A stretch of 64,000 nt of DNA, from NCBI RefSeq assembly GCF_056746865.1, contig NZ_CM163382.1, one strand, 5' to 3'. The position numbers and the translations under genes were made by a program. Each line of letters begins with the position of its first letter. Positions within the stretch are counted from its first letter, which is position 1. Below, in pieces: positions 7,961-36,294 of the stretch. The notes beneath the pieces were generated by a model. That model had not been told where the DNA came from. It ran no database searches and saw only the letters and a list, made by a program, of their open reading frames with translations.

Positions 7961-8323
7961 GGGGCTGATTCTGGATTCGACGGGATTTGCGAAACCCAAG
8001 GTGCATGCCGAGGGGCGGTTGGCCTCGTAAAAAGCCGCAAAAAATAGTCGCAAACGACGAAAACTACGCTTTAGCAGCTTAATAACCTGCTTAGAGCCCT
8101 CTCTCCCTAGCCTCCGCTCTTAGGACGGGGATCAAGAGAGGTCAAACCCAAAAGAGATCGCGTGGAAGCCCTGCCTGGGGTTGAAGCGTTAAAACTTAAT
8201 CAGGCTAGTTTGTTAGTGGCGTGTCCGTCCGCAGCTGGCAAGCGAATGTAAAGACTGACTAAGCATGTAGTACCGAGGACGTAGGAATTTCGGACGCGGG
8301 TTCAACTCCCGCCAGCTCCACCA
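7961..8323 (+). ncRNA. ssrA: tmRNA (SsrA), 363 nt
   Basis: Starts GGGGCTGATTCTGGATTCGACGGG and ends GGTTCAACTCCCGCCAGCTCCACCA. The internal tag reading frame GCAAACGACGAAAACTACGCTTTAGCAGCTTAA encodes ANDENYALAA. Confidence 0.98.
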
Positions 8324-8353
8324 AACATTCATTCATGATGCATCATGAACCTT

Positions 8354-8391
8354 AAAAAAGCCTGTAACTTCAACGAGTTGCAGGCTTTTTT
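8354..8391 (+). terminator. rho-independent terminator downstream of ssrA
   Basis: AAAAAAGCCTGTAAC-loop-GTTGCAGGCTTTTTT. The stem has one G-U pair and is followed by a T-run. Confidence 0.7.
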
Positions 8392-8443
8392 GTTGCATGT
8401 GTGGTCATGATCTCTGTATGAATCTTGACCTTTTGGCACCATG

Positions 8444-8489
8444 TTTAGCACCACGGTATCGTGGGGCTAAAAAAGCGTGGTGCTAAAAC
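8444..8489. repeat. three copies of a 12-13 bp motif immediately upstream of the int start; candidate integrase arm-type or regulatory sites
   Basis: TTTAGCACCACG (8444-8455) is the exact reverse complement of CGTGGTGCTAAA (8476-8487). A near copy CGTGGGGCTAAAA lies at 8460-8472. Confidence 0.5.
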
Positions 8490-9737
8490 ATGCCTAAGCA
8501 ACTGAAACCCTTAACAAATGTGGAGATCGCTGGCGCGAAGCCCCGTAGCACGGATTATGAGCTACGGGACGGTGAAGGCCTGTACTTGCTGGTTAAGACT
8601 TCAGGGAGGAAGGCCTGGCATTTCGAGTATTATCATCCCGTCACCAAAAAGCGCACCAAAACCAGCCTTGGCCCTTACCCGGTCGTTACACTGGCCATGG
8701 CTCGCGAAACTCGCACGAAATACAGACGACTGCTCTGGCAGGGCATCGATCCCCGTCAACACTTAGCAGGAATAGCCGAAGAAAAACGCCTCCAGAATGA
8801 ATGCACGCTGGAAAAAGTTGCGGAACAGTGGCTCAAAGAGAAGAAACGGACCAGCGACCTTAGCGAAGATCACGCCAAAGATGTCTGGCGCTCGCTGGAG
8901 ATGCACGTCTTCCCTTCTCTGGGCAGTACGCCCGTCACCGAGATCCGCCCGAAGATGCTCAAGGAACACCTCACCCCGCTGGAAGAACAGGGCATCCTCG
9001 AAACGCTGCGCCGGGTTATCTCACGGCTCAATGAAATCTTCCGCTTCGCCATCTCCGAAGAGCTTATCGAGTTTAACCCAGCAGACAACCTGGTCGCCCG
9101 CTTCAAGAAACCGAAAAAGCAGAACATGCCCGCCCTTCCCCCCAGCGAACTGGGCAGACTAATGTTGGCACTACAAAACGCCTCTATCCGCAAGGAAACA
9201 CGCTGCCTTATCGAATGGGAGCTACTGACCTGGGTTCGCCCCGGCGAAGCCGTTAGCGCCCGCTGGTGCGACATCGATATGAAAAAAGCGGAATGGCGTA
9301 TCCCTGACACCTTTATGAAGATGAACCGTTCACACACGGTGCCGCTCAGCAAACAGGCGCTGCGTGTTCTTCAGATCATGGAGCCCGTCAGCCGCCATCG
9401 TCCGTGGGTCTTCCCCAGCATCCGCAAACCGCTGGAGCACATGCACCAGCAGACCGCGAACGCCGCGCTTATCCGCATGGGGTTCGGCGGTGAGCTGGTC
9501 GCCCACGGCATGCGCAGCATCGCCAGAACGGCGGGCGCAGGTCATTTTCCCCGTGAAGTTCTGGAATCTGCACTGGCACACCAGAAAGAAGACGAGATCG
9601 AAGCGGCCTACAATCGCAGCGACTATCTGGAACAAAGGCGACCGCTCATGCAGTGGTGGGGAAACTACGTTGATGCCGCCAGACGGCAGGCATTGCTCGG
9701 TGAAGAAGAACCGCTGCGGATCGTGGAAGGAGAATAA
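8490..9737 (+). CDS. P4-type tyrosine integrase (DUF4102 N-terminal arm-binding domain)
   Basis: 415-aa ORF. The N-terminus LTNVEIAGAKPRSTDYELRDGEGLYLLVKTSGRKAWHFEYY is typical of P4-family integrases. The C-terminus carries HGMRSIART and HQKEDEIEAAYNRSDY, which hold the catalytic H-x-x-R and Tyr. It sits directly next to the tmRNA 3' end. Confidence 0.93.
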   Translation: MPKQLKPLTNVEIAGAKPRSTDYELRDGEGLYLLVKTSGRKAWHFEYYHPVTKKRTKTSLGPYPVVTLAMARETRTKYRRLLWQGIDPRQHLAGIAEEKRLQNECTLEKVAEQWLKEKKRTSDLSEDHAKDVWRSLEMHVFPSLGSTPVTEIRPKMLKEHLTPLEEQGILETLRRVISRLNEIFRFAISEELIEFNPADNLVARFKKPKKQNMPALPPSELGRLMLALQNASIRKETRCLIEWELLTWVRPGEAVSARWCDIDMKKAEWRIPDTFMKMNRSHTVPLSKQALRVLQIMEPVSRHRPWVFPSIRKPLEHMHQQTANAALIRMGFGGELVAHGMRSIARTAGAGHFPREVLESALAHQKEDEIEAAYNRSDYLEQRRPLMQWWGNYVDAARRQALLGEEEPLRIVEGE

Positions 9738-9738
9738 T

Positions 9739-10383
9739 GTGACCAGTCCCATTCGTCAGAATCTGTTTGAACGGGAATGCGATATGCCGCTGCTGGAAGC
9801 GCGGCATCTCGCCCTTCTGCTTCTCGGCCTTGATGCTTCCCAACCTGCAAACGCCCTGCCGGAAGAACATCAGGAAAATTACCGTATCCTGCACGACGCC
9901 ATCAGTCGCACCATCAAAGCAACGGGCATGGTCAGCGCCCCGGCGAACAAACGCATGTTCTATGCCGATGAAATGTTCGCGCTGGCCTGGCGGCTTATTG
10001 ATGACGAACTCACGCCGCCAGAAATTAAGGCCCGGAGCCTGAAGGCAGTGATGAAACTGTCACGCAACAGCCGTGGCCGCAAGTGGCTGAAGACGCTCGG
10101 CGACGATGCGCTGCCGGATCTCACTGCTTCCACACAACCTTCCCTGCGTGGGATGCATAAGCGCGACAAAGCACGGGAGAATACTGCCAGGCTCTGCTGG
10201 TTACTGGTTCAGCTTCTGGTTGATGAGACTGACGGACGGTATGGCACGTCTGATAAACCGGCTTCGGATCGGATACTTCGGAAGCTGAAGGAGCTGGCGC
10301 AGGAGCGGGAATTACCGTCAGACGGGCTTGGGCGAGGGACGTTTTATGAGGTTTTGAAGATGGGAAGGGAGAAGGAAGTTTAG
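9739..10383 (+). CDS. hypothetical protein, possibly translationally coupled to int
   Basis: Open frame from GTG 9739, with AGGAG 8 nt upstream and 1 nt after the int stop. ATG 9784 (MPLLEARH) is an alternative start. No recognisable motifs. Confidence 0.55.
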   Translation: MTSPIRQNLFERECDMPLLEARHLALLLLGLDASQPANALPEEHQENYRILHDAISRTIKATGMVSAPANKRMFYADEMFALAWRLIDDELTPPEIKARSLKAVMKLSRNSRGRKWLKTLGDDALPDLTASTQPSLRGMHKRDKARENTARLCWLLVQLLVDETDGRYGTSDKPASDRILRKLKELAQERELPSDGLGRGTFYEVLKMGREKEV

Positions 10384-10732
10384 GTAATAACACTGCAGAT
10401 CGCACGTGAACACAGTGCCACTTTCCCTATGGAATGTGAAATTAATCGGTAATACCCCTCGAAAGAATGTGAACAGACACTCTCTTGCTTAACTGTTGAA
10501 ACTCTTCGAATTAAAGACAAGGTTCGCCATTTAATTATCTGACAGTTCGCCCCAGCACAACGTTAAAGTGATTTTTGATCAATCACCTACTCTGCTCTGG
10601 CAGAGCCAGAGCCGTTTTACTGACTAAAGCACAAGCTTCCAGCGAATGCACCTTTCCACACACCATAAGTCTTGTGTGATACCAGCACTGACGGTGTATG
10701 TTACATATCCTTAAAAAGTTCTCCAGACCGAC

Positions 10733-11905
10733 TTAGAGAACCTTAGACTGTTCTGGGAACCAGTTATTAATTATATGTCTTCGACAGACTTTAGATATTT
10801 CAAATACCTGTCGTGACACTAATGCACCATCAGGATGGCGCTGGTCAGGTATGTCATTTTCTATGTCATAAAAATTATGCGTTATTTCTGGGGGAAAGAA
10901 AACGTTTTTGTCTAAAGGCACGCTTGCATAGGGATTATAATACACATGCAAACCATCAAAATGAGTTTCCTTGTAGTCCCTTGTTCGGCACATTACAATA
11001 TCCGCGCCAACAACCTCATTGTTGTAGAATTGTCGCTTCGTAGTAACATAATGGTCAGGACCAAGTTTTCTCGTATGAGAACCTTCGTTCTTCATACCTT
11101 CATTGGCAATAAAAACATTCACATCAAGAGCTCGGAATCTCGTATATCGGACATATCGATCGACCCGACTCTGAACGATAGCCTTACCAAAAGTACCTGT
11201 CGTTGAAAACACGATAGCACTGATTTCTTTGTATGAGTCATTTGTAAAAATACCTAAAGGTATTTCAGTGTCTTCATTTTTTTTAATCGATAAAACCCTT
11301 CTTTGCCTACCATTTACTAAATCTCTCATCGTAGGTTCTTCAATGCCAAACAATACCCGGTTAATGATTGTATTATTCTGGGTTAAAGATAGATCTGAAT
11401 CAAATGGGGCCAATGCTAACACAAAAGGCTTACCGATTACATGTTCCATTGTTGAGTATGGGAACTTCTTACCATTAATTCCGGTAAAGAGATCGCGCTT
11501 ATCTTTAATTTTCCCAAGAAGTTTTAGCGTAGATTGATGCTTAAACTTAGCTTCACTGAAAATTTCACTGACTGGCGGTTTATGGGGCTTGTCAGAGACC
11601 ATAGCCTCTACGTTAAATTTATAACCTAATGGCGTGCTAACACAAAAATCAGGACTGTCTTTTGTATAGTCAACCGAATACCCCAAACGAATAAACATCT
11701 CATTTAGATATAATTCCCACATAGAAGAATTAAAGGTAGTCTGAAATTCGTTAATAAATTTAGTTTGTTCACCACTGCGTTCCAGTAATCCGCGTCCCCA
11801 TGATTGGATCACCGCCCTAACAGGAGCAAGTTTAGGATCTGTGTAGATTGTTTTAAAATTGTGATTTAGTTTATTTCTAGCTATTTTTGTTGAGAAGAGA
11901 TCCAT
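10733..11905 (-). CDS. uncharacterised protein, paralog A of the 33844-34866 product; possible PD-(D/E)xK-like core
   Basis: 390-aa ORF in a low-GC block. It shares the blocks FQTTFNSSMWELYLNEMF, SPDFCV..FNVEA, KPFVLALAPFD, IPLGIFT..EISAIVFS and DGLHVYYNPYA with the other ORF. Confidence 0.75.
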   Translation of the reverse strand: MDLFSTKIARNKLNHNFKTIYTDPKLAPVRAVIQSWGRGLLERSGEQTKFINEFQTTFNSSMWELYLNEMFIRLGYSVDYTKDSPDFCVSTPLGYKFNVEAMVSDKPHKPPVSEIFSEAKFKHQSTLKLLGKIKDKRDLFTGINGKKFPYSTMEHVIGKPFVLALAPFDSDLSLTQNNTIINRVLFGIEEPTMRDLVNGRQRRVLSIKKNEDTEIPLGIFTNDSYKEISAIVFSTTGTFGKAIVQSRVDRYVRYTRFRALDVNVFIANEGMKNEGSHTRKLGPDHYVTTKRQFYNNEVVGADIVMCRTRDYKETHFDGLHVYYNPYASVPLDKNVFFPPEITHNFYDIENDIPDQRHPDGALVSRQVFEISKVCRRHIINNWFPEQSKVL

Positions 11906-12356
11906 TATTTACCTCTATAAACACTTTGTAAAACTAAACATGTGTATTTTACTGCGCTGATTGTCGAACATATGCTTCAAATTGTAATGCGGTATTCTAC
12001 ATCAGAAAAACCTCTTTTATATTTTCCTCATTAAATTTATTTACACCGAAAAATAGCCGCATGAATCATGTCTGAACAGATGAACTTCTCTAATATAGCC
12101 TAAATACCTACGACTGCGCTATAAAGAGGGAACCTCAAGCACTAATAGCACAAAGAAAATATGCGAACACAAATTTGACGCGAAACTATGACTTAGATAG
12201 GATGAATCTAGGTGGTGATGGTCACCTGGCGCCTGTCTCGCAAAGCAATAGCCCATCGTTCAGAAGTATACCAAATACTTGGCCGCCATCCATTATGACG
12301 CTGCCCGGTTAGCAGGCTATCGGTATCCAAAGCGTTACTTTATTGGAGGTACAGCC

Positions 12357-12896
12357 ATGTCTGACTATTCATACCTAAGCATTCTTAAAACGTGCGCTAA
12401 AAAGCTGGCTCGCATTCAGAAAATTAAGCTTTCCAAAGCACTCGAAATCGTTGCCCGTGACGCGAAATTCACCAGCTACCATGAGCTGTCCGAAGTCGCA
12501 AAACGTGCCCCGCTAGAACAACGGCTGGTTTTCGCTGCAATAGGCGAAGATACTCAAGAGGATGTGATTTATCGCGATGAGATTTTTTATGCCATAGACC
12601 GCGAGGTGGAAGATATGCTCTCCGGCGACATAGCGGAAACAAACGCCTATGGTTTTAGCATAGAGAATCTGGAGGCAACAAGCATAAATTACGACCCAAA
12701 GCGAGGCATTCTGGTCGTCCAAGTCATATTTGATTATCAGGGTGAACAAGATTCTGAACGCCCTTTCTCTGGTTCGTCCTTTGAAATTGTTGCGAAAATG
12801 GAGCTACTTCTTCGCGACAATGTATGGAGCCTCGTAGAAAATAGTCTGGAATTGACCTCTGTTAATTCAAATGTCGATAATGACTGGTACGATTAA
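12357..12896 (+). CDS. hypothetical acidic protein
   Basis: ATG 12357 is preceded by GGAGGT 8 nt upstream. 179 aa, with a D/E-rich C-terminal two thirds. No recognised motifs. Confidence 0.6.
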   Translation: MSDYSYLSILKTCAKKLARIQKIKLSKALEIVARDAKFTSYHELSEVAKRAPLEQRLVFAAIGEDTQEDVIYRDEIFYAIDREVEDMLSGDIAETNAYGFSIENLEATSINYDPKRGILVVQVIFDYQGEQDSERPFSGSSFEIVAKMELLLRDNVWSLVENSLELTSVNSNVDNDWYD

Positions 12897-13497
12897 GACA
12901 TATAACAGTAGGAGGCATTCCAAATTTTTGGCGGAGTGCCTTTTTAGTAACTATATCCAGATGAAATCATCGAGTTATCACATGAGCATCCATCTTACGT
13001 GTACTCAAAACACTTATGGGCTTCTAAATTCAGGAAGTCCCTACTCCGCTTGCTGGCGCTTCTTTGAGCCTCGTGGCGTCCATATACACCAATTAGGCCA
13101 GACCATGCTCAAACAACTTGTCGAGAAATGCTATGTGCAAAAACCACTGGACATGTTCTCGATGACAGCAGGCAAACTAACTGGGCTTGATCAATCTGGG
13201 CCTAAACTGGCTTCCATCATATGCAGAGGGATAGAGCAGGCCAAAGATGTACAACTCGGAGAGTTACTTTTTGCCTGCGGTATCTATGGTGTGGAAGAAG
13301 AAGAAGCCTGGTTACTAGCTAAAAGATTCAGTAATCTTGAGGCCTTGTATGGTGCCAGCATAGATTCTCTGATGAGTTATAACCTTCTTAATGAGGCAGT
13401 AGCTGTCAATACGTATAACTTCTTCCGTCATCCGCTCAATGTGTCGGCTCTTAACGAGTTACAAACAGAAGGTGGATTGAAGGTGCGCCATGGATAG
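12871..13497 (+). CDS. protein derived from the helix-hairpin-helix region of NAD-dependent DNA ligase LigA; possibly a gene relic
   Basis: [86 protein letters not shown]...[20 protein letters not shown] is collinear with my recollection of the LigA HhH region ([35 protein letters not shown]...LYALGIREVGE...FGTLEALEAASIEEL...FFAEESNRNVISELLAEGV). No adenylation, OB, Zn-finger or BRCT parts are present. The start is uncertain. Confidence 0.5.
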   Translation: [208 protein letters not shown]

Positions 13498-13831
13498 AAT
13501 TAACACCAAGGCTGTGCCCGGCCTTTTATCTATGCAACGTAGCCGATGACAGTTAACGGTGAGACAGCAACACCTGTTGTAACATGTTTGTACTCGTGCA
13601 TTGCCATCCGTAGGCCTAAACATATCTGACTCCCACAGGATGGGGATAAAATACAACATTTGCATTTTCAATTTGTTATCGAAAAATCATTAGTCCTGAT
13701 GGGAAATAATATCTTCCCGGACTAATGATTTTCTATCCGGACTCCACTTTTTTATCCGGGCCTATACCTCCCCTCATCGTTCCGCGCTATAACCGCTCCG
13801 ACACTCTGTTCCCGTCCCGTGAGGTGCAATC

Positions 13832-14047
13832 ATGAAAACCAGTGCAGACAGTAACGATGCTTTTCCCGAAAGCGGCAACGTGCGTATGCGGCAGGTAGTC
13901 CAGTTTCTGGCGATGAGTGAATCGTCGGTTTACCGCCTGATTAAAAACACCGACTTTCCCCGCCCCGTCCACCTCTCTTCCCGACTGGTGGTCTTCGATG
14001 CTGCTGAAATCCGTCAGTGGCAACAGCGCCGCGCCGCCATCCGTTAA
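13832..14047 (+). CDS. AlpA-family (MerR-like HTH) transcriptional regulator / excisionase-like protein
   Basis: The 71-aa ORF contains MRQVVQFLAMSESSVYRLIKNTDFPRPVHLSSRLVVFDAAEIRQWQ, the typical AlpA/Phage_AlpA pattern, located just upstream of the replication gene. Confidence 0.85.
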   Translation: MKTSADSNDAFPESGNVRMRQVVQFLAMSESSVYRLIKNTDFPRPVHLSSRLVVFDAAEIRQWQQRRAAIR

Positions 14048-14082
14048 TCCACGCTCAGGGATGAGCCGACTGATACCCCGTC

Positions 14083-16152
14083 ATGAAACGCGCCCCTTTT
14101 CTCTGTAAGCAGTCTCCGGACCGCACGCTCGAAGTGGTGATCCTTGCCGGAAGCCTGGCATGGGAGACCTCACACGTGTGGCGAAAAGATCCCGACCGGG
14201 AAGATGATGTTCCCCCGATGGTACTCGGCCCGGATGAACTGGCCGATCTGAGCAATCTGACCATTATCAGGCCCGACACGCTCTACGTCCGGGTACTTCG
14301 CACCGGCGATATCAGTGAAGAAGAGCTGCTGAAAATTGCCGTAAAACTGGCGCACGCGGGCGTGCAGATGGCCCGGCTGATGACCCCTGACGGTGAGTTA
14401 CTGGAGAACTGGACCGGACAGCTTGAACGCCTGCGACAGGAAAGACCTTCTGACATCCTGCCGGATCACTTCCGCCTCGATGAAGAAGCACTGTGGTTTG
14501 ATAAGCTCACCGAACGGCGCGACGGTGAAAGCGATGTCCAGCCCCAGCGCATCTGTTCCCCTCTGCGCGTCACTGCCATCACCTGCGACAGCCATGACGG
14601 CAGCTATGGCCGCCTGCTGGAATGGCACACCACCACCGGGCAATTGCGGCGCTGGGCCATGCCGATGGCGATGCTCAGCGGCAACGGCGAGGAGCTGAGG
14701 CGCATTCTGCTGGAGAACGGCCTGACCTATATCTCCACCCGCCCTGCCCTGCGCAGTCTGCTGTGCGAATATATCTCGCGGTCACTCCCCGGACGCCGGG
14801 TCACCTGCGCGGAGAAAACCGGCTGGCACAACGGCGTGTACGTGCTGCCGGATGAGGTTATCGGTCCCGATGGCGACAACGTCATTCTCCAGGGCAGCCA
14901 CTACCTGACTGGCGGCTTTGCACAATCCGGTACGCTGGCAGAGTGGCAGGAGCAGGTCGCCGCGCTCTGTGCAGGCAATTCACGGCTGGTCTTTGCCGTC
15001 TGCTGTGCGCTGGCCGCCCCGCTGCTGCGCCTGACAGGAACGGGCGGCGGAGGCTTTCATCTGCGCGGTGAGTCCACTGACGGTAAGACCACGGTGATGA
15101 AAGTGGCCGCTTCCGTCTGTGGCGGGACGGATTACTGGCACTCCTGGCGGGCCACCGGGAATGCGCTGGAAGGAATTGCCAGCCGCCACAACGATGCCCT
15201 GCTGCCACTTGATGAACTGCGCGAAGTGGACCCGCGTGAGGCCGGGATGATTGCCTATATGCTGGCGAACGGACAGGGCAAGGGGCGCGCCCGCACCGAT
15301 GGCGAAGTGCGTAACCGCAGGCACTGGACGCTGCTGCTGTTCTCCACCGGGGAGCTGTCGCTGGCGGAACACACCGAATGCGCCGGGGAGCGCCTCTACG
15401 CCGGGATGGACGTGCGCATGGTACAAATCCCCAGCGACACCGGGCAGCATGGTTCGTTTGAGCAGTTGCACGGGTTTGCCAGCGGCCAGCAGTTCGCCGA
15501 TACTCTCTGCGACCGGGTGGCCCGCTTCCACGGCACCGCCTTTCGTGCCTGGCTGGCCTTCCTCACCAGCGACCTGGACGCCAGCACCACGCTGGCGAGA
15601 GAGTTACTTCGCCGCTACCAGACCGCCCTGATGCCGGACAACGCCGGAAACCAGGTGCAGCGCATCGTGGCCCGTTTTGCCCTGCTGGCGGTGGCCGGGG
15701 AGATAGCGACACTGAACGGTATCACGGGCTGGCAGGAAGGCTCGGCGTATGGGGCGGTGCAGATCTGCCTTCACGCCTGGCTGAACGAGCGCGGCCATAT
15801 TGCCAACCAGGAAGATGAAGGCGTGCTGGCGCAGATCAAGCGGTTCATTACCGCGCACCAGTACAGCCGCTTTGCCTCGTGGGATGGCCCGGACCGCCCG
15901 CTGAATATGGCAGGCTTTCGCCGGGTGGAAAAAGATCCGCTGACGGGCGAGGAACACACGCTGTTCTTCATCCTGCCTGAGGGCTGGCGGGAAATATGCC
16001 GGGGATTCAGTCCTGCCAGAGCGGCCAGATTATGCCAGGAAGCGGAATGCCTGCTGCCCGGCAGCGACGGGAAATACCAGTCGCAGGTTCGCCTGCCGGA
16101 GATCGGCAAAGCCAGAGTCTACCGCCTCACCTCCCGCATCCTCAGTATCTGA
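14083..16152 (+). CDS. DUF927-type replication protein (P-loop SF3-helicase-like) of an integrative satellite-like element
   Basis: 689-aa high-GC ORF. ICSPLRVTAITCDSHDGSYGRLLEWHTTTGQLRRWAMPMAML resembles DUF927. Walker A-like LRGESTDGKTTV. Position alpA - rep - iterons. Confidence 0.8.
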   Translation: MKRAPFLCKQSPDRTLEVVILAGSLAWETSHVWRKDPDREDDVPPMVLGPDELADLSNLTIIRPDTLYVRVLRTGDISEEELLKIAVKLAHAGVQMARLMTPDGELLENWTGQLERLRQERPSDILPDHFRLDEEALWFDKLTERRDGESDVQPQRICSPLRVTAITCDSHDGSYGRLLEWHTTTGQLRRWAMPMAMLSGNGEELRRILLENGLTYISTRPALRSLLCEYISRSLPGRRVTCAEKTGWHNGVYVLPDEVIGPDGDNVILQGSHYLTGGFAQSGTLAEWQEQVAALCAGNSRLVFAVCCALAAPLLRLTGTGGGGFHLRGESTDGKTTVMKVAASVCGGTDYWHSWRATGNALEGIASRHNDALLPLDELREVDPREAGMIAYMLANGQGKGRARTDGEVRNRRHWTLLLFSTGELSLAEHTECAGERLYAGMDVRMVQIPSDTGQHGSFEQLHGFASGQQFADTLCDRVARFHGTAFRAWLAFLTSDLDASTTLARELLRRYQTALMPDNAGNQVQRIVARFALLAVAGEIATLNGITGWQEGSAYGAVQICLHAWLNERGHIANQEDEGVLAQIKRFITAHQYSRFASWDGPDRPLNMAGFRRVEKDPLTGEEHTLFFILPEGWREICRGFSPARAARLCQEAECLLPGSDGKYQSQVRLPEIGKARVYRLTSRILSI

Positions 16153-16824: not shown

Positions 16825-17811
16825 ATGGTTAAAATTCACATTTTAGATGCCGGACATGGTGATTGCTTGTTAGTAGACTGCGATGGTGTCAAATTGTTAA
16901 TTGACGCTGGCCCAAGTACATTTAGGTATAGAAAAAAAATTTCAGCCAAGTTAGCTGAACTTCTGAATGGCGAGTCTGTTGATATCGCTTTTGTAACTCA
17001 CAATGATGATGACCATATCGGTGGTTTCAAATACCTAATTGAAAATAAAATAAACATCAAGAGATTTGTATTCAATAGTTTATCTAACATTAAACATGTA
17101 ATAAAGAATTCAAGCAATAAAATATCGACCAAACAAGATATAAATCTTGATAGAATAGTGAAAGATGGAAGTTTTGTCTTTTCGACACTAACTTCAGATG
17201 ACTCTCCTATTTTAATCAGAAATATAAAAATAACACCTATTACTCCTTCAAAAAATATCCTTTTAAAATATTTAGAACAACAAGAGCGTAAAAACACAGA
17301 AATTAAAATATCATCTTCATCTGAAAAATATAGTATTAAAGAAGCACTGCAGTTGCTAAGCAATGGAAATGATATGTTTGTAAAGGATCCATCGGCAACT
17401 AATAAAACCAGTTTATCATTTATGATTGAGTATGGGAATTTTTGTGGATTATTCCTTGGTGATGCACACGAAGAAGACATCTACTCATATATGGCTAATC
17501 ATTGTGCCAATAGAAAAATATCATTTAACGTTGTTAAGTTAGCACATCATGGTAGTGAAAAAAACACGAGTTCACGGTTATTGAAGTTAATTGGTACAAC
17601 AGAATATATCATATGTGCGAATAAAACCAAGCATAATCATCCAAATAATTTAACTCTTGCAAGAATTTTAATACATGAACAAGAACCTAAAATTCATATG
17701 AGTAGCAGCAATCAGGAGATAATAAATTTACTCAATCAAATAAATTTATTAGGCTTCGGCATTACTGCAACCCATTCTGAAAATGGAGTTAATACTTTAA
17801 TCTATGAGTAG
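16825..17811 (+). CDS. metallo-beta-lactamase-fold hydrolase, ComEC/Rec2-type (candidate nuclease)
   Basis: 328 aa with HILDAGHGDCLLVDCDGVKLLIDAG, THNDDDHIGG (a variant of HxHxDH) and KLAHHGSEKNTS (the ComEC-like HHGS motif). The stop overlaps the next start (ATGAGTAG). Confidence 0.8.
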   Translation: MVKIHILDAGHGDCLLVDCDGVKLLIDAGPSTFRYRKKISAKLAELLNGESVDIAFVTHNDDDHIGGFKYLIENKINIKRFVFNSLSNIKHVIKNSSNKISTKQDINLDRIVKDGSFVFSTLTSDDSPILIRNIKITPITPSKNILLKYLEQQERKNTEIKISSSSEKYSIKEALQLLSNGNDMFVKDPSATNKTSLSFMIEYGNFCGLFLGDAHEEDIYSYMANHCANRKISFNVVKLAHHGSEKNTSSRLLKLIGTTEYIICANKTKHNHPNNLTLARILIHEQEPKIHMSSSNQEIINLLNQINLLGFGITATHSENGVNTLIYE

Positions 17812-19027
17812 AAAAAATGCTGTAAAAATAAAAGTCAATGATTCGGAATCAAGTGGCTATTTTTTCAAAGCAAGCTCCAAGGATGATTCTTTTGTAATTT
17901 CATCCAAGCACGGCCTTTGTTCTAGACAGTCAGATTGTGAAGAATTTCTTGATAATGTTCAGAATTGTTGCCGTTTATGCACTCAAGATTTAAATATTGA
18001 CAATATATCTTTTGAAATTGAAGGAAATAAGAAGCTAAAGCCAATAAGTTATTTCAGTCTTGAAAACAAAGATATTGTCATCACCAAAGTGGATGGGGTA
18101 TCTAATTATCCTTTAAGGATAGGAAAGATAGAAAAAGAAAAGTATTATACTTATGGTTACAAGAGTAAATGTGATAAGCCTGGCAGAATTTTATTAAATG
18201 AGCCAGATTTATTAGATGGGATTTGTTATTTCAATATATGTTCCGATGCAACACCTGAGTTGATTGAGAAAAGTGAAGAATATTATGGAATTTCAGGTTC
18301 ATTAGTTTTTGATTCTCCAGAAAAAGATGTTTTAACCGCACATGCAGTAATAACAACTAATGAAACCAATAATGACTTAGGTTCAGAAATATTACATGAT
18401 ATTGATTTCAAAGAAATTAATAACTTTTTCGGCTGTGAAGTATTCTTGGGTAAAAAACTCCAATTTCAACTAGATGATACTTTTAGTAAAAATTTTTCAA
18501 AGATTGGAGAAGTGCTTGTTAGCGACAAACTCCAAATTGAAATATTTATTTCATCTTATAAAGGTATACCATATTTTAATTTGACACCAATTGCTGATGC
18601 ATTAATTCAAAGTAAGTTTTATTATGTTTTTGGAAATGTTAGTAGAAGTGATCATATAAATATAATCGCTGCATCAAACATTATACTCAACAAATCTCAT
18701 TTAGAACCAGCTAATAAATTATTAACTAGCAAATTAACTGAATCGATATTATCAGCACCTCATATTTATTCCACTAGCATTGATGATAATAATTATCATC
18801 ATATTCATTTTAAACAAATGACTTCTGGTGATATTGAGCTCATAATATCATGTTATGGTGGAGGAGATGATCTTCCTAAAGATATAAATGGCACTTTAAC
18901 TGAGTTGTTACACAATATAAATACTTATAACTTAAATAAAAATTCAATAATTGAGAGGTCTTTTCTTAATCAAAAATTTACAGATGCACAATGCGAAATT
19001 TTATATGAGATTTTTTTGAGCGATTAA
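17804..19027 (+). CDS. fusion protein: N-terminal trypsin-like serine protease domain plus an unrecognised C-terminal domain
   Basis: 407 aa. Candidate catalytic triad in SSKHGL, KDIVITKV and YGISGSLVFD. Cys-rich insert CSRQSDCEEFLDNVQNCCRLC. The ORF ends just after a T7 run, and one extra T would fuse it to the next ORF. Confidence 0.7.
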   Translation: MSRKNAVKIKVNDSESSGYFFKASSKDDSFVISSKHGLCSRQSDCEEFLDNVQNCCRLCTQDLNIDNISFEIEGNKKLKPISYFSLENKDIVITKVDGVSNYPLRIGKIEKEKYYTYGYKSKCDKPGRILLNEPDLLDGICYFNICSDATPELIEKSEEYYGISGSLVFDSPEKDVLTAHAVITTNETNNDLGSEILHDIDFKEINNFFGCEVFLGKKLQFQLDDTFSKNFSKIGEVLVSDKLQIEIFISSYKGIPYFNLTPIADALIQSKFYYVFGNVSRSDHINIIAASNIILNKSHLEPANKLLTSKLTESILSAPHIYSTSIDDNNYHHIHFKQMTSGDIELIISCYGGGDDLPKDINGTLTELLHNINTYNLNKNSIIERSFLNQKFTDAQCEILYEIFLSD

Positions 19028-19053
19028 CTGATTCAATCGACAGAATTTCATTA

Positions 19054-19269
19054 TTGCATGTAATTCCTTTGGACCATTATTTAATAAAAGATAAATCAGA
19101 AATTAAAAATGAAATTATTACCATTGTTGAGAAAGCGTGTCAAGAATTAGACAGCAACATTTTAGATTATCTTGAGCATGGAATATCTATAAATCTATTA
19201 ATATTTCCAACTAATAATAAAGATGAATTATCAGGGTTAATGCAAAGGTTGATAAATAATTATGAATGA
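19054..19269 (+). CDS. 71-aa ORF with a TTG start, probably the detached C-terminus of the preceding gene
   Basis: Its frame is open from 19009. An 8-T instead of 7-T run at 19011-19017 would join it to 17804-19027. Its stop overlaps the helicase start (ATGAATGA). Confidence 0.45.
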   Translation: MHVIPLDHYLIKDKSEIKNEIITIVEKACQELDSNILDYLEHGISINLLIFPTNNKDELSGLMQRLINNYE

Positions 19270-20464
19270 TGCTATTAATTATATCTGCAATAGAATAAAA
19301 AATAGTGACGGATTTAGTTACTGTTATGAAAAACTATTGATATCTATTTCAAAGAATCTATTCAATCCAACTAGCAGCAACCCCATTACTCAGCGTGAAT
19401 ATCAACAATTGCTAAAATTCAGCGATTTTTTATCTAATTCCGAAAAAGAAGAAGATCGAAACCTAGCGTTAAAAATAATATCTGCAATATATGATCTTTA
19501 TAAAGAAGATCATAGTTGCCAATTACTGACAAAATCCATCCTTAGCAAACTTGGACTTTTTGCCGCTGAGGAAGTATTTACTGATAGTGATATAAAACTA
19601 CCATTATCCTATGAAATTTCTAGCAAATACAGAAAAATAAAAAATCGTATAAATGGTTCTGAGTACATATTCACTAATCGACAATGTGATGTGTACAGTG
19701 AGATCATGCAGAATGATTATTTTAGTTTTTCTGGCCCGACATCCCTCGGCAAATCATTCTTGATTAAACATGCTGCCGTTGATCTTATTGAAAATAATAA
19801 ACTAATTATTTTCATCCTTCCAACAAAAGCTTTATTAGAAGAATATCTAATTGACTTAAAATCTATACTCAATGAAAAAGGCGTGAAAGATATAAATGTA
19901 AGTAAATCCGTATCACAAGTTGACAAAGAAAGTAAAAATATATTGGTGTTTACACAAGAAAGATATAACTCATTTTTATATGAAAAGTCTTATGATAATA
20001 TGGATGTTGACTTTTTATTTATTGATGAAGCTCATAAAGTACTTGACAAAAAGAATAATAGAGCTATAACCCTATATAAAGTAATAAATAACTCCATAGA
20101 AAAATATGGTAAATTAAAAGTCATTTTTTCCTGCCCAGTAATTTCCAATCCTGATGTGTTTTTCAAAACATTTAATATACCGAATAGCAAGAAAACAAGA
20201 AGTTTATGTATTAAAGAATCTCCGGTAAATCAAGATTTGTACTTTGCAAATTATCAAGATAATAATTTTGTCTATTTTGATTCTATTTTAAATAAAAAAA
20301 TTAATTTCAATGTAAATAATGCTTATCAAAATGACTTTGAAATAATCAGAGGATTAGCACAACAATCCAAGTCAAACCTTATCTACGTATCAAGTAAAAC
20401 AGAATGTATAAGGAAATGTAACGAATTTCTAGAGTATTTAATTCGGGAAAAAAAGTATCGATAA
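19262..20464 (+). CDS. SF2 DExH helicase, N-terminal part (RecA1 domain); gene split by a frameshift
   Basis: Walker A FSGPTSLGKSF, motif II FIDEAHKV, motif III-like VIFSCP. It ends 7 nt after an A7 run at 20448-20454. Confidence 0.8.
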   Translation: MNDAINYICNRIKNSDGFSYCYEKLLISISKNLFNPTSSNPITQREYQQLLKFSDFLSNSEKEEDRNLALKIISAIYDLYKEDHSCQLLTKSILSKLGLFAAEEVFTDSDIKLPLSYEISSKYRKIKNRINGSEYIFTNRQCDVYSEIMQNDYFSFSGPTSLGKSFLIKHAAVDLIENNKLIIFILPTKALLEEYLIDLKSILNEKGVKDINVSKSVSQVDKESKNILVFTQERYNSFLYEKSYDNMDVDFLFIDEAHKVLDKKNNRAITLYKVINNSIEKYGKLKVIFSCPVISNPDVFFKTFNIPNSKKTRSLCIKESPVNQDLYFANYQDNNFVYFDSILNKKINFNVNNAYQNDFEIIRGLAQQSKSNLIYVSSKTECIRKCNEFLEYLIREKKYR

Positions 20465-20502
20465 CAACAGACGATGAACTTATTTCCGAGTCAAAAATAA
20501 TC

Positions 20503-21786
20503 ATGGAGTATATTCATAAAGATTTTAACTTAGCTCATGTATTAAAATATGGTATAGCATTTCACCATGGTTCACTACCTCTATTTATAAGAAAAAGAAT
20601 AGAGGACTTATATTCCAAAAAGAAAATAAATTTTATCTTTTGCACATCAACTTTACTTGAAGGGGTAAACTTACCCACAAAGAATGTTTTTATTTATCCA
20701 TTCCCTAAAAAGACTGTTAACGATGAAAAAAAATGCCGATTAGATTTTTGGAATCTGGCGGGGCGAGCTGGAAGATACAGAAGTGAATTGACTGGTAACA
20801 TAGTATGCCTGAATACCGCTGATAATAACTGGAGCAATGCAGATGCTAAAATTAGCCTAGGTAATAATGTTATTATAGAGGATGAAATAAACTCAACATT
20901 ACTACGCCATCAAAAAATATTAAATTATTTTGATGGTAAAGTTAAATCTCCAACTAATGACATTATTCAACTCAGCTCACTTATTCTATCAGAAATATTA
21001 ACTTATTTAGATAAAGGTTATATAGGGCGAATTTTAAATACCTTTAATGAAAAGATTCGGTTTATGCTTATTGATTCAGGAAAAAAACATCTTGATCGTA
21101 ATAGAATTATTGAAATAGATAAAGTGACCTTTTCAGAAAATCATATATTCTCAACATCCATACACGCTAAAGCCCAACTCAATGCTAAAAATAAAGAAAA
21201 ATTATTGCGTTCTTATAGCAGAGAGGATGTTTTCAATTATTTGGAAACAATAAATGAAATATATGGCCTGCGTAACACCCCTGATTCATTAAACCAACTG
21301 TGCATTGTGACTTATTCGTGGCTCATGGGTAATACGCTGAATTTATTAATATCAAACGCTATTAAATATAGCAATTCAGTTAGAGATCCTATTAGCTATA
21401 GATGGGTTAAATTTGATAAAACCAATCCTGATCATATAAACGCAAAAATAATGGAGGCAATACAATGCATTGAATCTGAAGTTACTTTTAAACTTGAAAC
21501 ATGTATTGCTCATTTTTATCAGCTATGTCAATCAATTCACGGCGATGAAAATGCAGGCATTAATCTTTCACCTTATTTAGAATATGGAACATTAGATACT
21601 AACATCATAGAACTTCAAGAGTTTGGTTTCTCTCGTTTAGCCGCAATTGAAATTATAGCAAAGCACAAAGAGTGTGTTACATTCAAAACAAATGAGACAT
21701 CATTGCAAATAAACACTCAGAAATTAAGAGCTAAGATTGAAAAGCACAGTGTAATTGATAGAGAACTATCATGGTTGAATTTATAA
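20503..21786 (+). CDS. SF2 DExH helicase, C-terminal part (RecA2 domain plus C-terminal extension)
   Basis: GIAFHHGSLPLFIRKRIEDLY, FCTSTLLEGVNLPTKNVFI and NLAGRAGRY are Ski2/Hel308-like motifs IV-VI. The frame is open upstream back to 20422 and joins 19262-20464 if the A-run had 8 A. Confidence 0.8.
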   Translation: MEYIHKDFNLAHVLKYGIAFHHGSLPLFIRKRIEDLYSKKKINFIFCTSTLLEGVNLPTKNVFIYPFPKKTVNDEKKCRLDFWNLAGRAGRYRSELTGNIVCLNTADNNWSNADAKISLGNNVIIEDEINSTLLRHQKILNYFDGKVKSPTNDIIQLSSLILSEILTYLDKGYIGRILNTFNEKIRFMLIDSGKKHLDRNRIIEIDKVTFSENHIFSTSIHAKAQLNAKNKEKLLRSYSREDVFNYLETINEIYGLRNTPDSLNQLCIVTYSWLMGNTLNLLISNAIKYSNSVRDPISYRWVKFDKTNPDHINAKIMEAIQCIESEVTFKLETCIAHFYQLCQSIHGDENAGINLSPYLEYGTLDTNIIELQEFGFSRLAAIEIIAKHKECVTFKTNETSLQINTQKLRAKIEKHSVIDRELSWLNL

Positions 21787-25674: not shown

Positions 25675-26018
25675 ACAAACGGCGCAGGGTAGCTCCCTGT
25701 GCCAGTTCCATATGATTTTGCTAATTCTACTCACTGGTATATTCACTCGTTAGGCTTTGGCCCGCAGATATATTAATGTTTTCCATCCTGCCGCAACAAA
25801 ACCCCACACACGATTGTATGTTTTTTAGTCATCAAGGTGAATAGAGGTATTTTATGGCTATGACCTTTTTCACCTCCCTGCCAATAGTATCATGCTAAAC
25901 CTCTCATCTATGTTTATTGCGCCATAATAGTCAACAAGTATTTCAAAAAAGTCCCAAGCAAATTATAATGCTGGAGTTTCATAATGTCCCTTTAAAAACC
26001 ATTTTAAGAAGAGCTATT

Positions 26019-27170
26019 ATGTCCCTCCCTACAAATTTTAATGATATTCTTCGTCTTTTTGAAAAAGATTACGATACAGCCAAAGAAGATAATGCCTTAA
26101 GTGCACGCGGACAATTTCTGCAACTTTACCCCCTTAATCGCCTAAAAAAAATGACGCTTGATGACTATGTCATCGGCAAAGGCACGGCCTCATTTTGTGC
26201 TTGTGTTGAAGTAAAAACCAGAACATGGGCAAATATGCAAGGTGCGACGGCGCTCAAATTTGGTATTTATTATGGAAAATCAAAATCAGATCCAGCCGTC
26301 CGCTATCGTTTTACTCAGAAATTTGGCGATGATGATAGTACTAATAAAGAAGTTTTCGCTAATGTTAAAGACGCTTTACTAGACCTAATACAGTCAGGGA
26401 AAGAATTAGATTTTAGAGCGATTGACGAGAACCCCCTATCCCAAATGTTTAAGGCTAAAATATTGAGCCTTTACTTTCCAGAACACTTTATAAACATTTG
26501 CAGCAAAGATCATCTTAAAGAAATTGCTATGAAAATGGGTATAAAAGAGCAACAGTTTATTAGTAAATATCAACATTTGTTATTCAAGAAAAAACTAGAG
26601 CATAAAATCACCCGAAACTGGAGCAATCCAAAATATATGTCCTTCCTTTATGCCCAGTTCATACGTAAGGATCTTAGCAGCGCTCCTGCTGTGATAGTTA
26701 AAAAACCACAAAAAAGAAACCATCCCGAAGTCAATTTCGAAGAAATAACGGACAATCGTGATTTAATAGGCAAAAAAAGCGAAGAATATGCATTAAACTG
26801 GGAAAAAAACCGCCTAATCGGTCTCGGCTATTCAAAACTAGCTGAGGAAATAGATGATCGCCGTAATCGTCCAACTTATGGTTACGACTTTCTTTCTTTT
26901 AATGCCCCAGGTGATGAGCGATACATCGAAGTAAAATCAATTGGCCGAGATGGAAAAGAGGGAGCATTCCGTTTTTTCCTCTCAGGAAATGAACTCACCG
27001 TTTCTAATTTAAGTAACCACCGTAAAAACTATTATTTTTATCTTGTACAGTATGGGAAAGATGGAGAGCCATGCAATCTATATGTAAAACATGCTCAAGA
27101 TCTTTACACTAATAGTGAAATGACCCCTTGTGCTTACGTTGTTAGGTTCGATCTGGAAGAACCTGCTTAA
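26019..27170 (+). CDS. fusion protein with a C-terminal DUF3883-type restriction-endonuclease-fold domain
   Basis: The C-terminus EEYALNWEKNRLIGLGY...YGYDFLSFNAPGDERYIEVKSIGRDGKEGAFRFFLSGNELTVS...YYFYLV fits the DUF3883 GYD..S/..IEVK signature. ATG 26019 has only a purine-rich AAGAAGAG stretch upstream and no clear Shine-Dalgarno. The ORF track starts at 25917. Confidence 0.7.
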   Translation: MSLPTNFNDILRLFEKDYDTAKEDNALSARGQFLQLYPLNRLKKMTLDDYVIGKGTASFCACVEVKTRTWANMQGATALKFGIYYGKSKSDPAVRYRFTQKFGDDDSTNKEVFANVKDALLDLIQSGKELDFRAIDENPLSQMFKAKILSLYFPEHFINICSKDHLKEIAMKMGIKEQQFISKYQHLLFKKKLEHKITRNWSNPKYMSFLYAQFIRKDLSSAPAVIVKKPQKRNHPEVNFEEITDNRDLIGKKSEEYALNWEKNRLIGLGYSKLAEEIDDRRNRPTYGYDFLSFNAPGDERYIEVKSIGRDGKEGAFRFFLSGNELTVSNLSNHRKNYYFYLVQYGKDGEPCNLYVKHAQDLYTNSEMTPCAYVVRFDLEEPA

Positions 27171-27241
27171 TAGTTTCGACAACCTCCGACTCATAACTTT
27201 AAAAGTGTGAAATCAGGCGCAGAGTCACCTGAGCCTTCATC

Positions 27242-27877
27242 TCAGTGATACTGCAACAACACCTGCGAAATCTTCCTCGCTTCATCAGCAGGATCCGCTG
27301 CATGCGTGATCGCTGATCCCACAATCACCACATCCGGGCCTAACAGCGCATAGTCTTTCACCGTCTGGCTACTGATGCCGCCTGCTACGGCAATCCGTGC
27401 TTTCCGGCGCGCCTTCAGCATTGTTATCAAATCATCAATCGGCTTGCGCCCTGCCGCCTGCTGGTCGGTGCCTGTGTGTACCGCCAGCATATCCGCGCCC
27501 GCCTCTTCCAGGAGGCGGACCCGCGCAGGGAGATCGTCGACGCAGATCATATCCACCACCACCTGCTTTCCAGCCTCCTTCGCCGCACAGATGCATGACT
27601 GGATCGTCAGCAGGTCGGTCACACCTAACACCGTGACATAGTCTGCTCCGGCGTCGAAAAGCAGCTGCGATTCAAAATGGCCGCCATCCATAATTTTCGC
27701 ATCCACCAGTACTTCCTTATGCGGGTATTTCTCTTTAATGACTTTAATCGCGTTCACGCCTTCCCGAATAAGAAAAGGTGTACCCACTTCAATAATATCA
27801 ACGTCGTCAACCACCTTATCGATAAATACCAGCGCTTCAGGCAGGGTTAACTCGTCCAGGGCAAGCTGTAATTTCAT
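27242..27877 (-). CDS. 3-hexulose-6-phosphate synthase / 3-keto-L-gulonate-6-P decarboxylase family (OMP decarboxylase fold)
   Basis: 211 aa starting MKLQLALDELTLPEALVFIDKV..DIIEVGTPFL, with VDAKIMDGG and AVAGGIS, the typical HPS/UlaD/SgbH pattern. Confidence 0.85.
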   Translation of the reverse strand: MKLQLALDELTLPEALVFIDKVVDDVDIIEVGTPFLIREGVNAIKVIKEKYPHKEVLVDAKIMDGGHFESQLLFDAGADYVTVLGVTDLLTIQSCICAAKEAGKQVVVDMICVDDLPARVRLLEEAGADMLAVHTGTDQQAAGRKPIDDLITMLKARRKARIAVAGGISSQTVKDYALLGPDVVIVGSAITHAADPADEARKISQVLLQYH

Positions 27878-27900
27878 GTTGGTTTCCTTGTGTCGAATGA

Positions 27901-33843: not shown

Positions 33844-34866
33844 ATGTCTAGTCTTAATTTATTCGATGATGTCGTACCTTTAGAAAAACAGCATCCAATA
33901 TATATAATGATGAAAAAGGAACGCTATGAACCGGAGAGAGAAGTAATTAACCAATGGGCAAAAGGATTTCTAGACAGGGATAATAAGTTTACAAAAGAAT
34001 TTCAAACAAGTTTTGAACCTTGCCTATGGGAGTTATATCTTTTTGCTTATCTTAAAGAATTGGGTTTAAGGAACGACTTTTCATACGATGCACCTGACTT
34101 CATCGTCAATGAACCTGGGTTTTGCATTGAGGCAACCATAGCCCTTCCGGCACAAGGAGCCCCTGGAGCGCATGGTTTCAGTACGGAAGATATGCCAAGA
34201 GATTTTAATAAGTTTAATTCTGAGGCATCTATTCGACTTAGCAATAGTTTTATATCAAAGGTAAAAAAATTAAGATCGAGATATTCTCAACTTCCTCAAT
34301 GTAAAGAAAAACCTTTTGTTATCGCCATAGCTTCCTTCGACCGACCTTTTGCGCACTTTGCCGCAGCCAGACCCATACTTGCAACATTATATGGTTTATA
34401 TCATGATGAAGAAGCAACCATTGAATCAGGATCAAAGAGCATAATTTCTTATAACGTTGAGGCTGCGGTAAAAAAAGAAAATGTTAATATAGCCATGGGG
34501 TTATTTTGCACGCCTGATTATTCGGATGTAAGTGCTGTGATTTATAGTAGTTTAGCTACTTGGGGAAAAGTAAGAGCTTTGGCGGACAATCCTTCAGCTC
34601 TAACAATTTATACAACCTTTACCCCAAGAGAAAATTCATTATATCCTAAAGTTCATCAAGCCAAAAAAAATGATTATATAGAGCATCTGGCAGATGGATT
34701 GTATATTTTACATAACCCATTTGCCAAGTATCCGTTGCCTAAAGAGACGCTAAGCCACCCTAGAGTAGCACAAGGTTATGTTGAATCTGATGGATACGTC
34801 AATTTTGTAGCGCCAGAGGATTTTCTTTTATTGCGTTTTTTACAATCATTCAATCTTAAAGATTAG
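33844..34866 (+). CDS. uncharacterised protein, paralog B of the 10733-11905 product
   Basis: ATG 33844 is preceded by GAGGTG. 340 aa with FQTSFEPCLWELYLFAYL, APDFIV..FCIEAT, KPFVIAIASFD, IAMGLFC..DVSAVIYS and DGLYILHNPFA. Confidence 0.75.
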   Translation: MSSLNLFDDVVPLEKQHPIYIMMKKERYEPEREVINQWAKGFLDRDNKFTKEFQTSFEPCLWELYLFAYLKELGLRNDFSYDAPDFIVNEPGFCIEATIALPAQGAPGAHGFSTEDMPRDFNKFNSEASIRLSNSFISKVKKLRSRYSQLPQCKEKPFVIAIASFDRPFAHFAAARPILATLYGLYHDEEATIESGSKSIISYNVEAAVKKENVNIAMGLFCTPDYSDVSAVIYSSLATWGKVRALADNPSALTIYTTFTPRENSLYPKVHQAKKNDYIEHLADGLYILHNPFAKYPLPKETLSHPRVAQGYVESDGYVNFVAPEDFLLLRFLQSFNLKD

Positions 34867-35196: not shown

Positions 35197-36294
35197 TTAT
35201 TTTCTTGATAGGCTTTGTATAGTATGAATAAACCTTACAAAGTTATGAAGAAGCTCGTGATTTTCCTCTGATATACCATCTGGGTCAAAGTGCATCACGT
35301 CGTTACGAATTATTCTGACCTTGTCGAGCTCTTTAGTAAATATTTTCTTATCTATTTGAAGTTCGGTTTTTTTCCACAATTCTGGATTTTCAAAAAGTCG
35401 TATATATTCCCCAAAGGTTAAATCTGCGACCGACTCTATAACCCGTTCGCTGTCAAATGGATTAACGATGCTAACAAGCTCATCTTTCGTAAATTTTCCA
35501 TCTATCAGCTTACGAATATGATTTTCGATTTCAGATAGTAAAAGAAAAGGTTCTGACAACTGTCTGAACTGAGAACTAAGATCGGTAGTAGTTATAATCC
35601 CACTAATTCTTTGATCAGAAGATCGCACTAATACGTAAGCATACTCAATAATTCTAGGTAGTGCAGAAAAAATAGAGTCACTGGCGTTTATTTCCCTGTG
35701 TGGCTTCATATAATCACGCACAACCGCAGATTCTGATTGGGTCAACGCTAGTATTGGAGCAATGCTTTCCCAACTAATAACACCTTTAACATCTCGCTCG
35801 CTGGTCATAACGGGTAGTTGAGAGTAGTCATGCCGCAACATCAATGTGATGGCTTCTGTTAATGTAGCGTCAGGTTTCACGGTCACTAGTTTAACATCCG
35901 ATGCTTCGAGTCGACTAACACGGAAGGCTGGCTCGGAAACTGCACCGGAAATTAGTTCATCATGCGGCTGAAATACTGTTTCAGGTGTAGCCAATTCGGC
36001 GTTACTTGATTCGGTTTCTTCATGTAAACATTCACCTGCTTCATGGGGCGTTGCGTCATTCCCCGGAGGTGCATAGATAGTAATTTTTGCATCCAGCGGC
36101 ACACTATCAAAATCAGGTTCGGTTTTAACTCCTAAGCTTTCTAATGCTTTGCGAATTTTGTACGCAACCATGTAGCCTCGACGCTCTGCGCCAAACCAGC
36201 TTATGAATTCTCGCACTGATACTGGGTTTGAGGACATACCGTCTTTTAGTTCACGAAGGATTTCGTTAAGTCTTTCTCGATTTTCTACTGCCAT
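35197..36294 (-). CDS. CBS-pair protein with a C-terminal HEPN-like domain (Rx4H motif)
   Basis: 365 aa. Two CBS-like segments (VKLVTVKPDATLTEAITLMLRHDYSQLPVM..VKGVISWESI and VRDYMKPHREINASDSIFSALPRIIEYAYVLVRSSDQRISGIITTTDL). The C-terminal helical region contains IIRNDVMHF (RNDVMH encoded at 35290-35307). Confidence 0.7.
   Translation of the reverse strand: MAVENRERLNEILRELKDGMSSNPVSVREFISWFGAERRGYMVAYKIRKALESLGVKTEPDFDSVPLDAKITIYAPPGNDATPHEAGECLHEETESSNAELATPETVFQPHDELISGAVSEPAFRVSRLEASDVKLVTVKPDATLTEAITLMLRHDYSQLPVMTSERDVKGVISWESIAPILALTQSESAVVRDYMKPHREINASDSIFSALPRIIEYAYVLVRSSDQRISGIITTTDLSSQFRQLSEPFLLLSEIENHIRKLIDGKFTKDELVSIVNPFDSERVIESVADLTFGEYIRLFENPELWKKTELQIDKKIFTKELDKVRIIRNDVMHFDPDGISEENHELLHNFVRFIHTIQSLSRK

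Follow-up and report, generated by a model that had tools for sequence, protein, structure and literature searches.

PD-T7-5 is a single-gene anti-phage system that was recovered from Escherichia coli UMB0934 by functional selection against phage T7 (Vassallo et al., 2022; PMC9519451). Its published position is contig RRWJ01000050, where the open reading frame (ORF) 27110-28283 lies within a cloned region of 1436 bp (26967-28402; Table S2 of that study); the protein accession is RRM82777.1, the cloning primers are given in Table S8, and the vector is entered as promoterless. Like every system of that study, it was examined in MG1655 from a low-copy vector and driven by its own promoter, with unchanged adsorption and a lowered efficiency of plating of the selecting phage (PMC9519451). 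Table S1 includes PD-T7-5 among the validated systems with the label "Nuclease", which was given because of weak HHpred matches at residues 63-107 (Hjc 77.9%, FokI_C 63%, Vsr 59%, PDDEXK_5 43%, and RmuC 41%) (PMC9519451). The stretch of DNA analyzed here, 64,000 nucleotides of contig NZ_CM163382.1 (RefSeq assembly GCF_056746865.1; hereafter the window), contains this very locus, which we call gene A, and a second gene, gene B, which we assign to the same family (Table 1).

The closest described relative apart from PD-T7-5 itself (PADLOC model PDLC04110) is PD-T7-1 (PDLC04073; Vassallo et al., 2022), which belongs to the same superfamily and is represented by a 449-aa protein of the lambdoid phage mEp460 (locus L009, 3656-5005; PADLOC, 521 bits). 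Those passages of the reviews that mention PD-T7-1 and PD-T7-5 only list them as predicted single-gene PD-(D/E)xK systems, and our literature search found no mechanistic work on either of them. A genomic setting that has to be considered is the gpA-portal interval of P2 prophages, which is a known defence hotspot (old, tin, and others) according to the passage of Vassallo et al. (2022; PMC9519451) that cites Rousset et al. (2022). Unlike the cargo of that hotspot, genes A and B of the window sit in a mosaic island at ssrA together with a PRK09692-type integrase, AlpA, and a DUF927 protein.

Gene A Is the Type Locus of PD-T7-5

Gene A is an ORF of 1173 nt whose product carries the RefSeq label "hypothetical protein" (WP_000362947.1), and the initial annotation of the window had presented it as uncharacterised. 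This description has to be corrected, since primer matches and PADLOC identify gene A as the cloned and validated PD-T7-5. Primer PD-T7-5-F matches the window at 10589-10606 (+) and primer PD-T7-5-R at 11991-12024 (-), neither with any mismatch; together they delimit an amplicon of 1436 bp, which is the published insert length. Gene A is the only gene within this fragment, which includes 144 bp downstream and 119 bp upstream of it, i.e., ORF offsets of 144/119 here vs 143/119 in the publication. Primers, insert length, ORF length, and offsets all agree, and therefore gene A is the type locus of PD-T7-5. The PADLOC model PDLC04110 matches its product with 455.7 bits (E=2.4e-137; profile positions 1-342 of 346), and PHROG 8571 matches it as well (E=1e-101).

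Since the native fragment gave protection from a promoterless vector, a working promoter should lie within the 119 bp upstream of gene A. A consensus promoter scan around A and B, including these 119 bp, gave no signal above shuffled controls, and the same was true for a consensus terminator scan around both genes. PD-T7-5 has no obligatory partner: the validated insert holds gene A alone, and the neighbours of its homologues vary by species. PD-T7-5 is already published, and standard annotation with PADLOC would name both A and B; the finding on gene A is thus real but already known, and there is little new in it.

Table 1. Coordinates of the features discussed in the text (positions in the window;., no strand).
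Feature	Position	Strand	Evidence
Gene A, PD-T7-5 coding sequence, 390 aa, single-gene anti-phage system	10733..11905	-	ORF, PADLOC, primer bracketing
Fragment of 1436 bp cloned as pCV1-PD-T7-5 (Vassallo et al., 2022)	10589..12024	.	Exact primer matches
Upstream region that should hold the native promoter of PD-T7-5 (119 bp)	11906..12024	-	Fragment active in promoterless vector
Gene B, 340-aa paralog, PD-T7-5 family by PADLOC	33844..34866	+	ORF, PADLOC, BLASTP, AlphaFold2 (AF2)
A-clade-specific insertion, residues 264-295 (32 residues), mostly predicted beta strands	11021..11116	-	Alignment gap map; AF2 strands 275-282 and 285-294
Predicted restriction-endonuclease-like core of A, residues 58-170 (helix, three strands, helix, strand)	11396..11734	-	
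Candidate residue E64 of A	11714..11716	-	
Candidate residue D86 of A (in P85-D86)	11648..11650	-	
Candidate residue E100 of A	11606..11608	-	
Candidate residue K136 of A	11498..11500	-	
Predicted nuclease-like core of B, residues 57-167; E63, D85, E96, K139	34012..34344	+	
ssrA (tmRNA; 7961-8323) and adjoining integrase (8490-9737), left island end	7961..9737	+	ARAGORN; NCBIfam PRK09692, 459 bits; RefSeq
PD-T4-1 (DUF3883 protein), second validated system of Vassallo et al. (2022)	25968..27170	+	PADLOC PD-T4-1, E=1.3e-204
CBS-domain anti-phage protein (DS-11), convergent with gene B	35197..36294	-	NCBIfam NF053863 DS11_antiphage equivalog, 404.9 bits vs cutoff 260

Gene B Is an Old Relative of PD-T7-5

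The product of gene B is also a "hypothetical protein" in RefSeq (WP_001376998.1). An alternative upstream ATG at 33796 would yield a protein of 356 aa; the homologues of B start at an M-x-LF position, which favours the start at 33844. The PD-T7-5 model covers B over its full length (E=9.8e-102, 338.6 bits, profile positions 1-340 of 346), although B is only 26% identical to A, and for both proteins the second-best PADLOC model is PD-T7-1 (A, 137 bits, E=1.5e-40; B, 172 bits, E=5.2e-51). The full-length matches support the proposal, made before from the sequence, that A and B are paralogs belonging to a defence family, and gene B is almost certainly a member of the PD-T7-5 family. We infer that gene B would defend against phage; no report of a phage test for it was found in the literature.

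The ordered blocks that the initial annotation had seen in both proteins, at roughly 30% identity by eye, are all present in the pairwise alignment that it had proposed, and the homology is far beyond chance. By BLASTP, A and B share 26% identity (94/366; 108 bits, E=2e-31) between residues 1-351 of A and 4-316 of B, and the aligned region holds FQTTF..WELYL, SPDFCV/APDFIV, VEA/IEA, KPFVLALAPFD/KPFVIAIASFD, ISAIVFS/VSAVIYS, and DGLHVYYNPYA/DGLYILHNPFA. Compared with the PD-T7-5 type protein, B lacks residues 264-295 and the C-terminal 16 residues of A. It also holds true, as noticed earlier, that both genes stand alone and are low in GC: they are monocistronic, with a GC content of 0.376 (A) and 0.369 (B) vs 0.473 for the window.

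The ELYL, PDF, EA, and helix-K motifs are common to A, B, and PD-T7-1. PD-T7-1 nevertheless forms a separate clade, whose N-terminus is longer by about 100 residues (profile positions 1-103); A and B lack this part, align to the profile only from positions 104/108 on, and reach 137-172 bits vs 521 bits for the mEp460 member. Neither A nor B is thus a PD-T7-1 protein, i.e., a protein of roughly 450 aa that includes these N-terminal ~100 residues. The three are roughly equidistant, with pairwise identities of 23-26% over about 340 residues, and on sequence grounds they are three old branches of one superfamily.

Of the 5426 complete E. coli genomes, 134 carry gene A and 128 carry gene B; all the copies are located on the chromosome, with an identity of at least 99%. 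The two genes are about 23 kb apart in those genomes that were matched by both. This constant spacing, together with the identity of at least 99% across the carrier genomes, indicates that the island is inherited as a unit. Gene B is disrupted in one strain, where the annotation of the stretch includes an IS5.

Origin and Co-residence of Family Members

The scan of species-representative genomes yielded 155 relatives, distributed among Proteobacteria, Cyanobacteria, Bacilli, Treponema, Planctomycetes, Myxococcota, Campylobacterota, and Bacteroidota. A-type proteins that are 47-85% identical to A occur in Cronobacter, Enterobacter, Proteus, Yersinia, Pseudomonas, and rhizobia, and B-type proteins that are 54-98% identical to B in Klebsiella, Citrobacter, Pectobacterium, Vibrio, Herbaspirillum, and others, whereas the identity between the A-type and the B-type clades is only 25-34%. 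The phage collection contained only distant relatives of A and B (23-27%), the mEp460 copy being PD-T7-1; one match that is 90% identical to B has a metagenomic Caudoviricetes assembly as its source name.

Of 80 loci in other species, only two, from unrelated genomes, have another member of the family within 10 kb. One is in Pseudomonas sp. TH10, where 5.7 kb separate an A-type from a B-type gene (locus L011, 10001-11164 and 16836-17870), in an island with PDC-M65 genes between the pair and a Lamassu LmuB gene nearby. The other is in Archangium violaceum and consists of a tandem of one PD-T7-5-like and one PD-T7-1-like gene (locus L057, 9998-11404 and 11340-12440). Co-residence of family members therefore recurs, but it is not the rule.

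Two homologous low-GC genes about 23 kb apart in one island could have been produced by a local duplication followed by fast divergence, and the initial annotation had in fact taken the two diverged copies as a sign of diversifying selection. The clade structure speaks against such an origin, since A resembles the A-type proteins of other genera (47-85%) much more than any B-type protein (25-34%), B in turn finds its closest relatives among the B-type proteins of Klebsiella, Citrobacter, Vibrio, and Herbaspirillum, A and B are about as distant from PD-T7-1 as from each other, and the same split separates the pair of Pseudomonas sp. TH10. Diversifying selection, for its part, is at odds with the identity of at least 99% that both genes keep in every E. 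coli carrier genome. Because the two old clades have their own orthologues in other genera, the A/B pair is not a local duplication, and we have discarded the duplication-plus-selection scenario, ruled out by clade structure and within-species conservation, as having next to no probability. The pair reflects separate acquisitions of A and B by a mosaic defence island. A different way to account for the pair is that A and B are the two components of one system, e.g., a hetero-oligomeric nuclease, which would agree with their co-occurrence in 127-134 E. coli genomes, with the A-type plus B-type pair 5.7 kb apart in TH10, and with the tandem of PD-T7-5-like and PD-T7-1-like genes in Archangium. 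However, gene A alone on the 1436-bp fragment protects E. coli K-12, a second member accompanies only two of the 80 loci of other species, the two genes are on opposite strands and separated by about 22-23 kb that hold unrelated genes, and their co-occurrence in E. coli is explained by the inheritance of the whole island, so that a two-component system appears very improbable. Since A is effective by itself, A and B are read as independent systems.

In other species, genes of both clades lie beside a P2-type portal gene. A P2-like prophage of Klebsiella has a B-type gene between its GPA replication gene and the portal, and an A-type gene of Serratia adjoins a P2-type portal and terminase in a P2-like remnant. 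Adjoining the Klebsiella B-type homologue there is a 390-aa gene (locus L005, 9532-10704) that matches the PADLOC candidate PDC-S31 (E=7e-23), and thus this gpA-portal hotspot has two putative defence genes. The 390-aa gene was considered as an A-type partner, having the same length, and was rejected because it is unrelated to A (BLASTP E=3.7).

Many family entries bear the name "glycosaminoglycan attachment site", which masks the link to PD-T7-5. It looks like a spurious motif-derived name that has spread through UniRef and NCBI.

Predicted Structure, Active Site, and Mechanism

The AF2 models of A and B, built on family alignments, had a predicted local distance difference test (pLDDT) of 90.7 and 90.4 and a predicted template modelling score (pTM) of 0.90 and 0.91, respectively. 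Both models share the same predicted order of elements (numbering of A): N-terminal helices, a long helix with E64, a short strand, a strand right after P85-D86, a strand with E100-A101, a long helix with K136, a strand at 161-166, and then a larger alpha/beta region. In the family alignment, which comprises 64 sequences of the three clades from many phyla, every sequence has Q55, E64, P85, D86, K136, and Y150, and 98% have E100.

A restriction-endonuclease-like alpha/beta core is predicted in both models. The relatives to be compared within the PD-(D/E)xK superfamily are the XisH-like protein 2okf, CdiA-CT (4g6v and 4g6u), VRR-NUC, Hjc, NucC, Cfr10I, NgoMIV, and Bse634I. The core of A and B is like that superfamily in its topology (helix, three strands, helix, strand) and in the position of an acidic residue in the first helix, of PD opening the second strand, and of E in the third strand. 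This agrees with the suggestion of the initial annotation that the PDF...xEA segment could be an endonuclease-like core, and the published HHpred matches flag the same segment. In contrast to the superfamily, A and B have no Lys two residues past the Glu, as had also been noted from the letters: A has M at position 102, B has T there, and the alignment rows shown have M, V, I, or T, so that of the signature D...(D/E)-x-K protein A possesses D86 and E100 but not the final Lys. About 220 further residues of A and B are also unlike the superfamily, being without any informative structural match. No methyltransferase gene flanks A or B, and hence the locus does not have the composition of a restriction-modification system. 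The fold class shown for A and B is thus restriction-endonuclease-like (PD-(D/E)xK), without the canonical Lys.

According to these models, A and B are three-part proteins, with N-terminal helices, a PD-(D/E)xK core, and, towards the C-terminus, a conserved alpha/beta region unique to the family. E64, D86, and E100 would serve as acidic metal ligands, the catalytic Lys would be K136 of A or K139 of B, supplied by the next helix and not by the position two residues past the Glu, and nucleic acid would be cleaved in a metal-dependent manner during infection. K136 may therefore belong to the active site as a possible stand-in for the motif Lys. Relocated catalytic residues do occur in PD-(D/E)xK enzymes such as Cfr10I and NgoMIV. 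The models thus suggest that A and B probably act as metal-dependent nucleases. For the explanation as a whole, i.e., that A is PD-T7-5, that B is a separately acquired relative, and that both are nucleases with a relocated Lys, we estimate a probability of roughly 0.6.

The searches for known nucleases weigh against the enzymatic part of this explanation. With A, B, or alignment A1 as query there was no match to any family, curated nuclease families included, in Pfam (E<=1) or in NCBIfam, nor to PDB sequences by phmmer or profile search (E<=10), i.e., no significant sequence-profile similarity to the PD-(D/E)xK superfamily. The Foldseek comparison of the AF2 models, one of the checks suggested at the outset, was run against PDB and returned nothing significant, the best match being FokI (E=0.044). 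The lack of any nuclease profile match is what would be expected if the endonuclease-like fold were catalytically dead and defence relied on the binding or sequestration of a nucleic acid or protein of the phage or on the recruitment of a host factor; the canonical Lys is missing in the A-type and B-type rows shown as well as in the PD-T7-1 representative, and inactive PD-(D/E)xK folds exist. We regard this inactive version as rather unlikely, and as somewhat less so the idea that the proteins are abortive-infection toxins that would cut RNA or tRNA instead of DNA and stay silent until a phage product triggers them. Some CdiA-CT toxins, which are among the structural relatives named above, act on RNA/tRNA. 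More doubtful than either is the proposal that the co-residence of divergent members in E. coli, TH10, and Archangium is not due to chance and would mean cooperation or complementary specificities, in combination with a previously undescribed active site that uses the Lys of helix 2 (K136). Under the preferred reading of A and B as independent nucleases, E64, D86, E100, and K136, placed on confident models, are concrete targets for mutagenesis, and the B-type clade is a natural variant with which to probe differences of specificity within the family.

The ssrA Island and Its Other Defence Genes

The window is E. coli chromosome and is identical to NZ_CP030768.1 from about position 460536 of the latter to roughly 36.9 kb of the window. 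The region from ssrA to ypjA, which holds A and B, is the variable island of the ssrA hotspot, mosaic in structure and with strong GC swings. We have looked for its right-hand attachment site without finding it: a 25-mer search for a second ssrA 3' end, with up to 3 mismatches, gave no match, and the ssrA 3' 16-mer with 2 mismatches matched only inside an SgrR-family gene.

Gene A is convergent with the ORF 9739-10383 and divergent from 12357-12896, and gene B is divergent from 33083-33619 and convergent with the DS-11 gene. The small ORFs 9739-10383, 12357-12896, and 13135-13497 flank PD-T7-5 between the integrase and the AlpA/DUF927 genes, outside the validated insert. Two of them had no match in any library scanned, and the third matched only a helix-hairpin-helix domain (HHH_2). 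In other strains, the 8000-14500 stretch contains insertions of IS2, IS5, or IS21.

The island also contains PD-T4-1, a system that was likewise obtained from UMB0934 (PMC9519451). The PD-T4-1 primers match exactly at 25775-25792 and 27184-27204 and delimit the published insert of 1430 bp. Since both primer sets map here, PD-T7-5 and PD-T4-1, which are on separate contigs in the UMB0934 draft, are 14 kb apart in one island. The window thus shows PD-T7-5 and PD-T4-1 in their complete native surroundings, a single ssrA island that they share with DS-11 and a Hachiman-like cluster. DS-11, the CBS-domain protein encoded next to gene B, was recognized by its NCBIfam equivalog (Table 1), and no model of PADLOC-DB v2.0 matches it.

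The Hachiman-like cluster is a block of 28-30% GC (16825-21786) with four plus-strand ORFs. The first ORF encodes an MBL-fold protein (LmuA/RTasMBL/Avs1a-like, E=3e-61), and the second, of 407 aa, had no match in Pfam, PADLOC, or NCBIfam. The ORF 19262-20464 corresponds to positions 4-400 of the HamB (Hachiman) profile and 20503-21786 to positions 413-842 of 845; the HamA model had no match among the ORFs scanned. The block can be read in two ways, as a Hachiman helicase that has been split or pseudogenised or as an unusual system of MBL plus helicase.

Between 22781 and 32731, high-GC cargo (0.55-0.61) for sugar metabolism is interleaved with low-GC defence cassettes. It encodes a phosphotransferase system of the glucitol/sorbitol type, a Gfo/Idh/MocA oxidoreductase, hxlA/hxlB, a ptsG-like gene, as well as an SgrR-family regulator, so that the island is a mosaic of both metabolic and defence modules.

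An IS3-family element occupies 36941-38154 (ORFs 36941-37267 and 37264-38154; rve, HTH_21). NZ_CP030768.1 is without this element, and a partial tyrosine recombinase is annotated there instead; the stretch that contains the element has a full match in only a few genomes. ARAGORN also detected a tRNA-Met with a CAT anticodon at 48694-48769 (-), which we take to be probably ileY (tRNA-Ile2, whose CAT is read as Ile after lysidine modification) from the K-12 gene order in the ypjA to glaH region.
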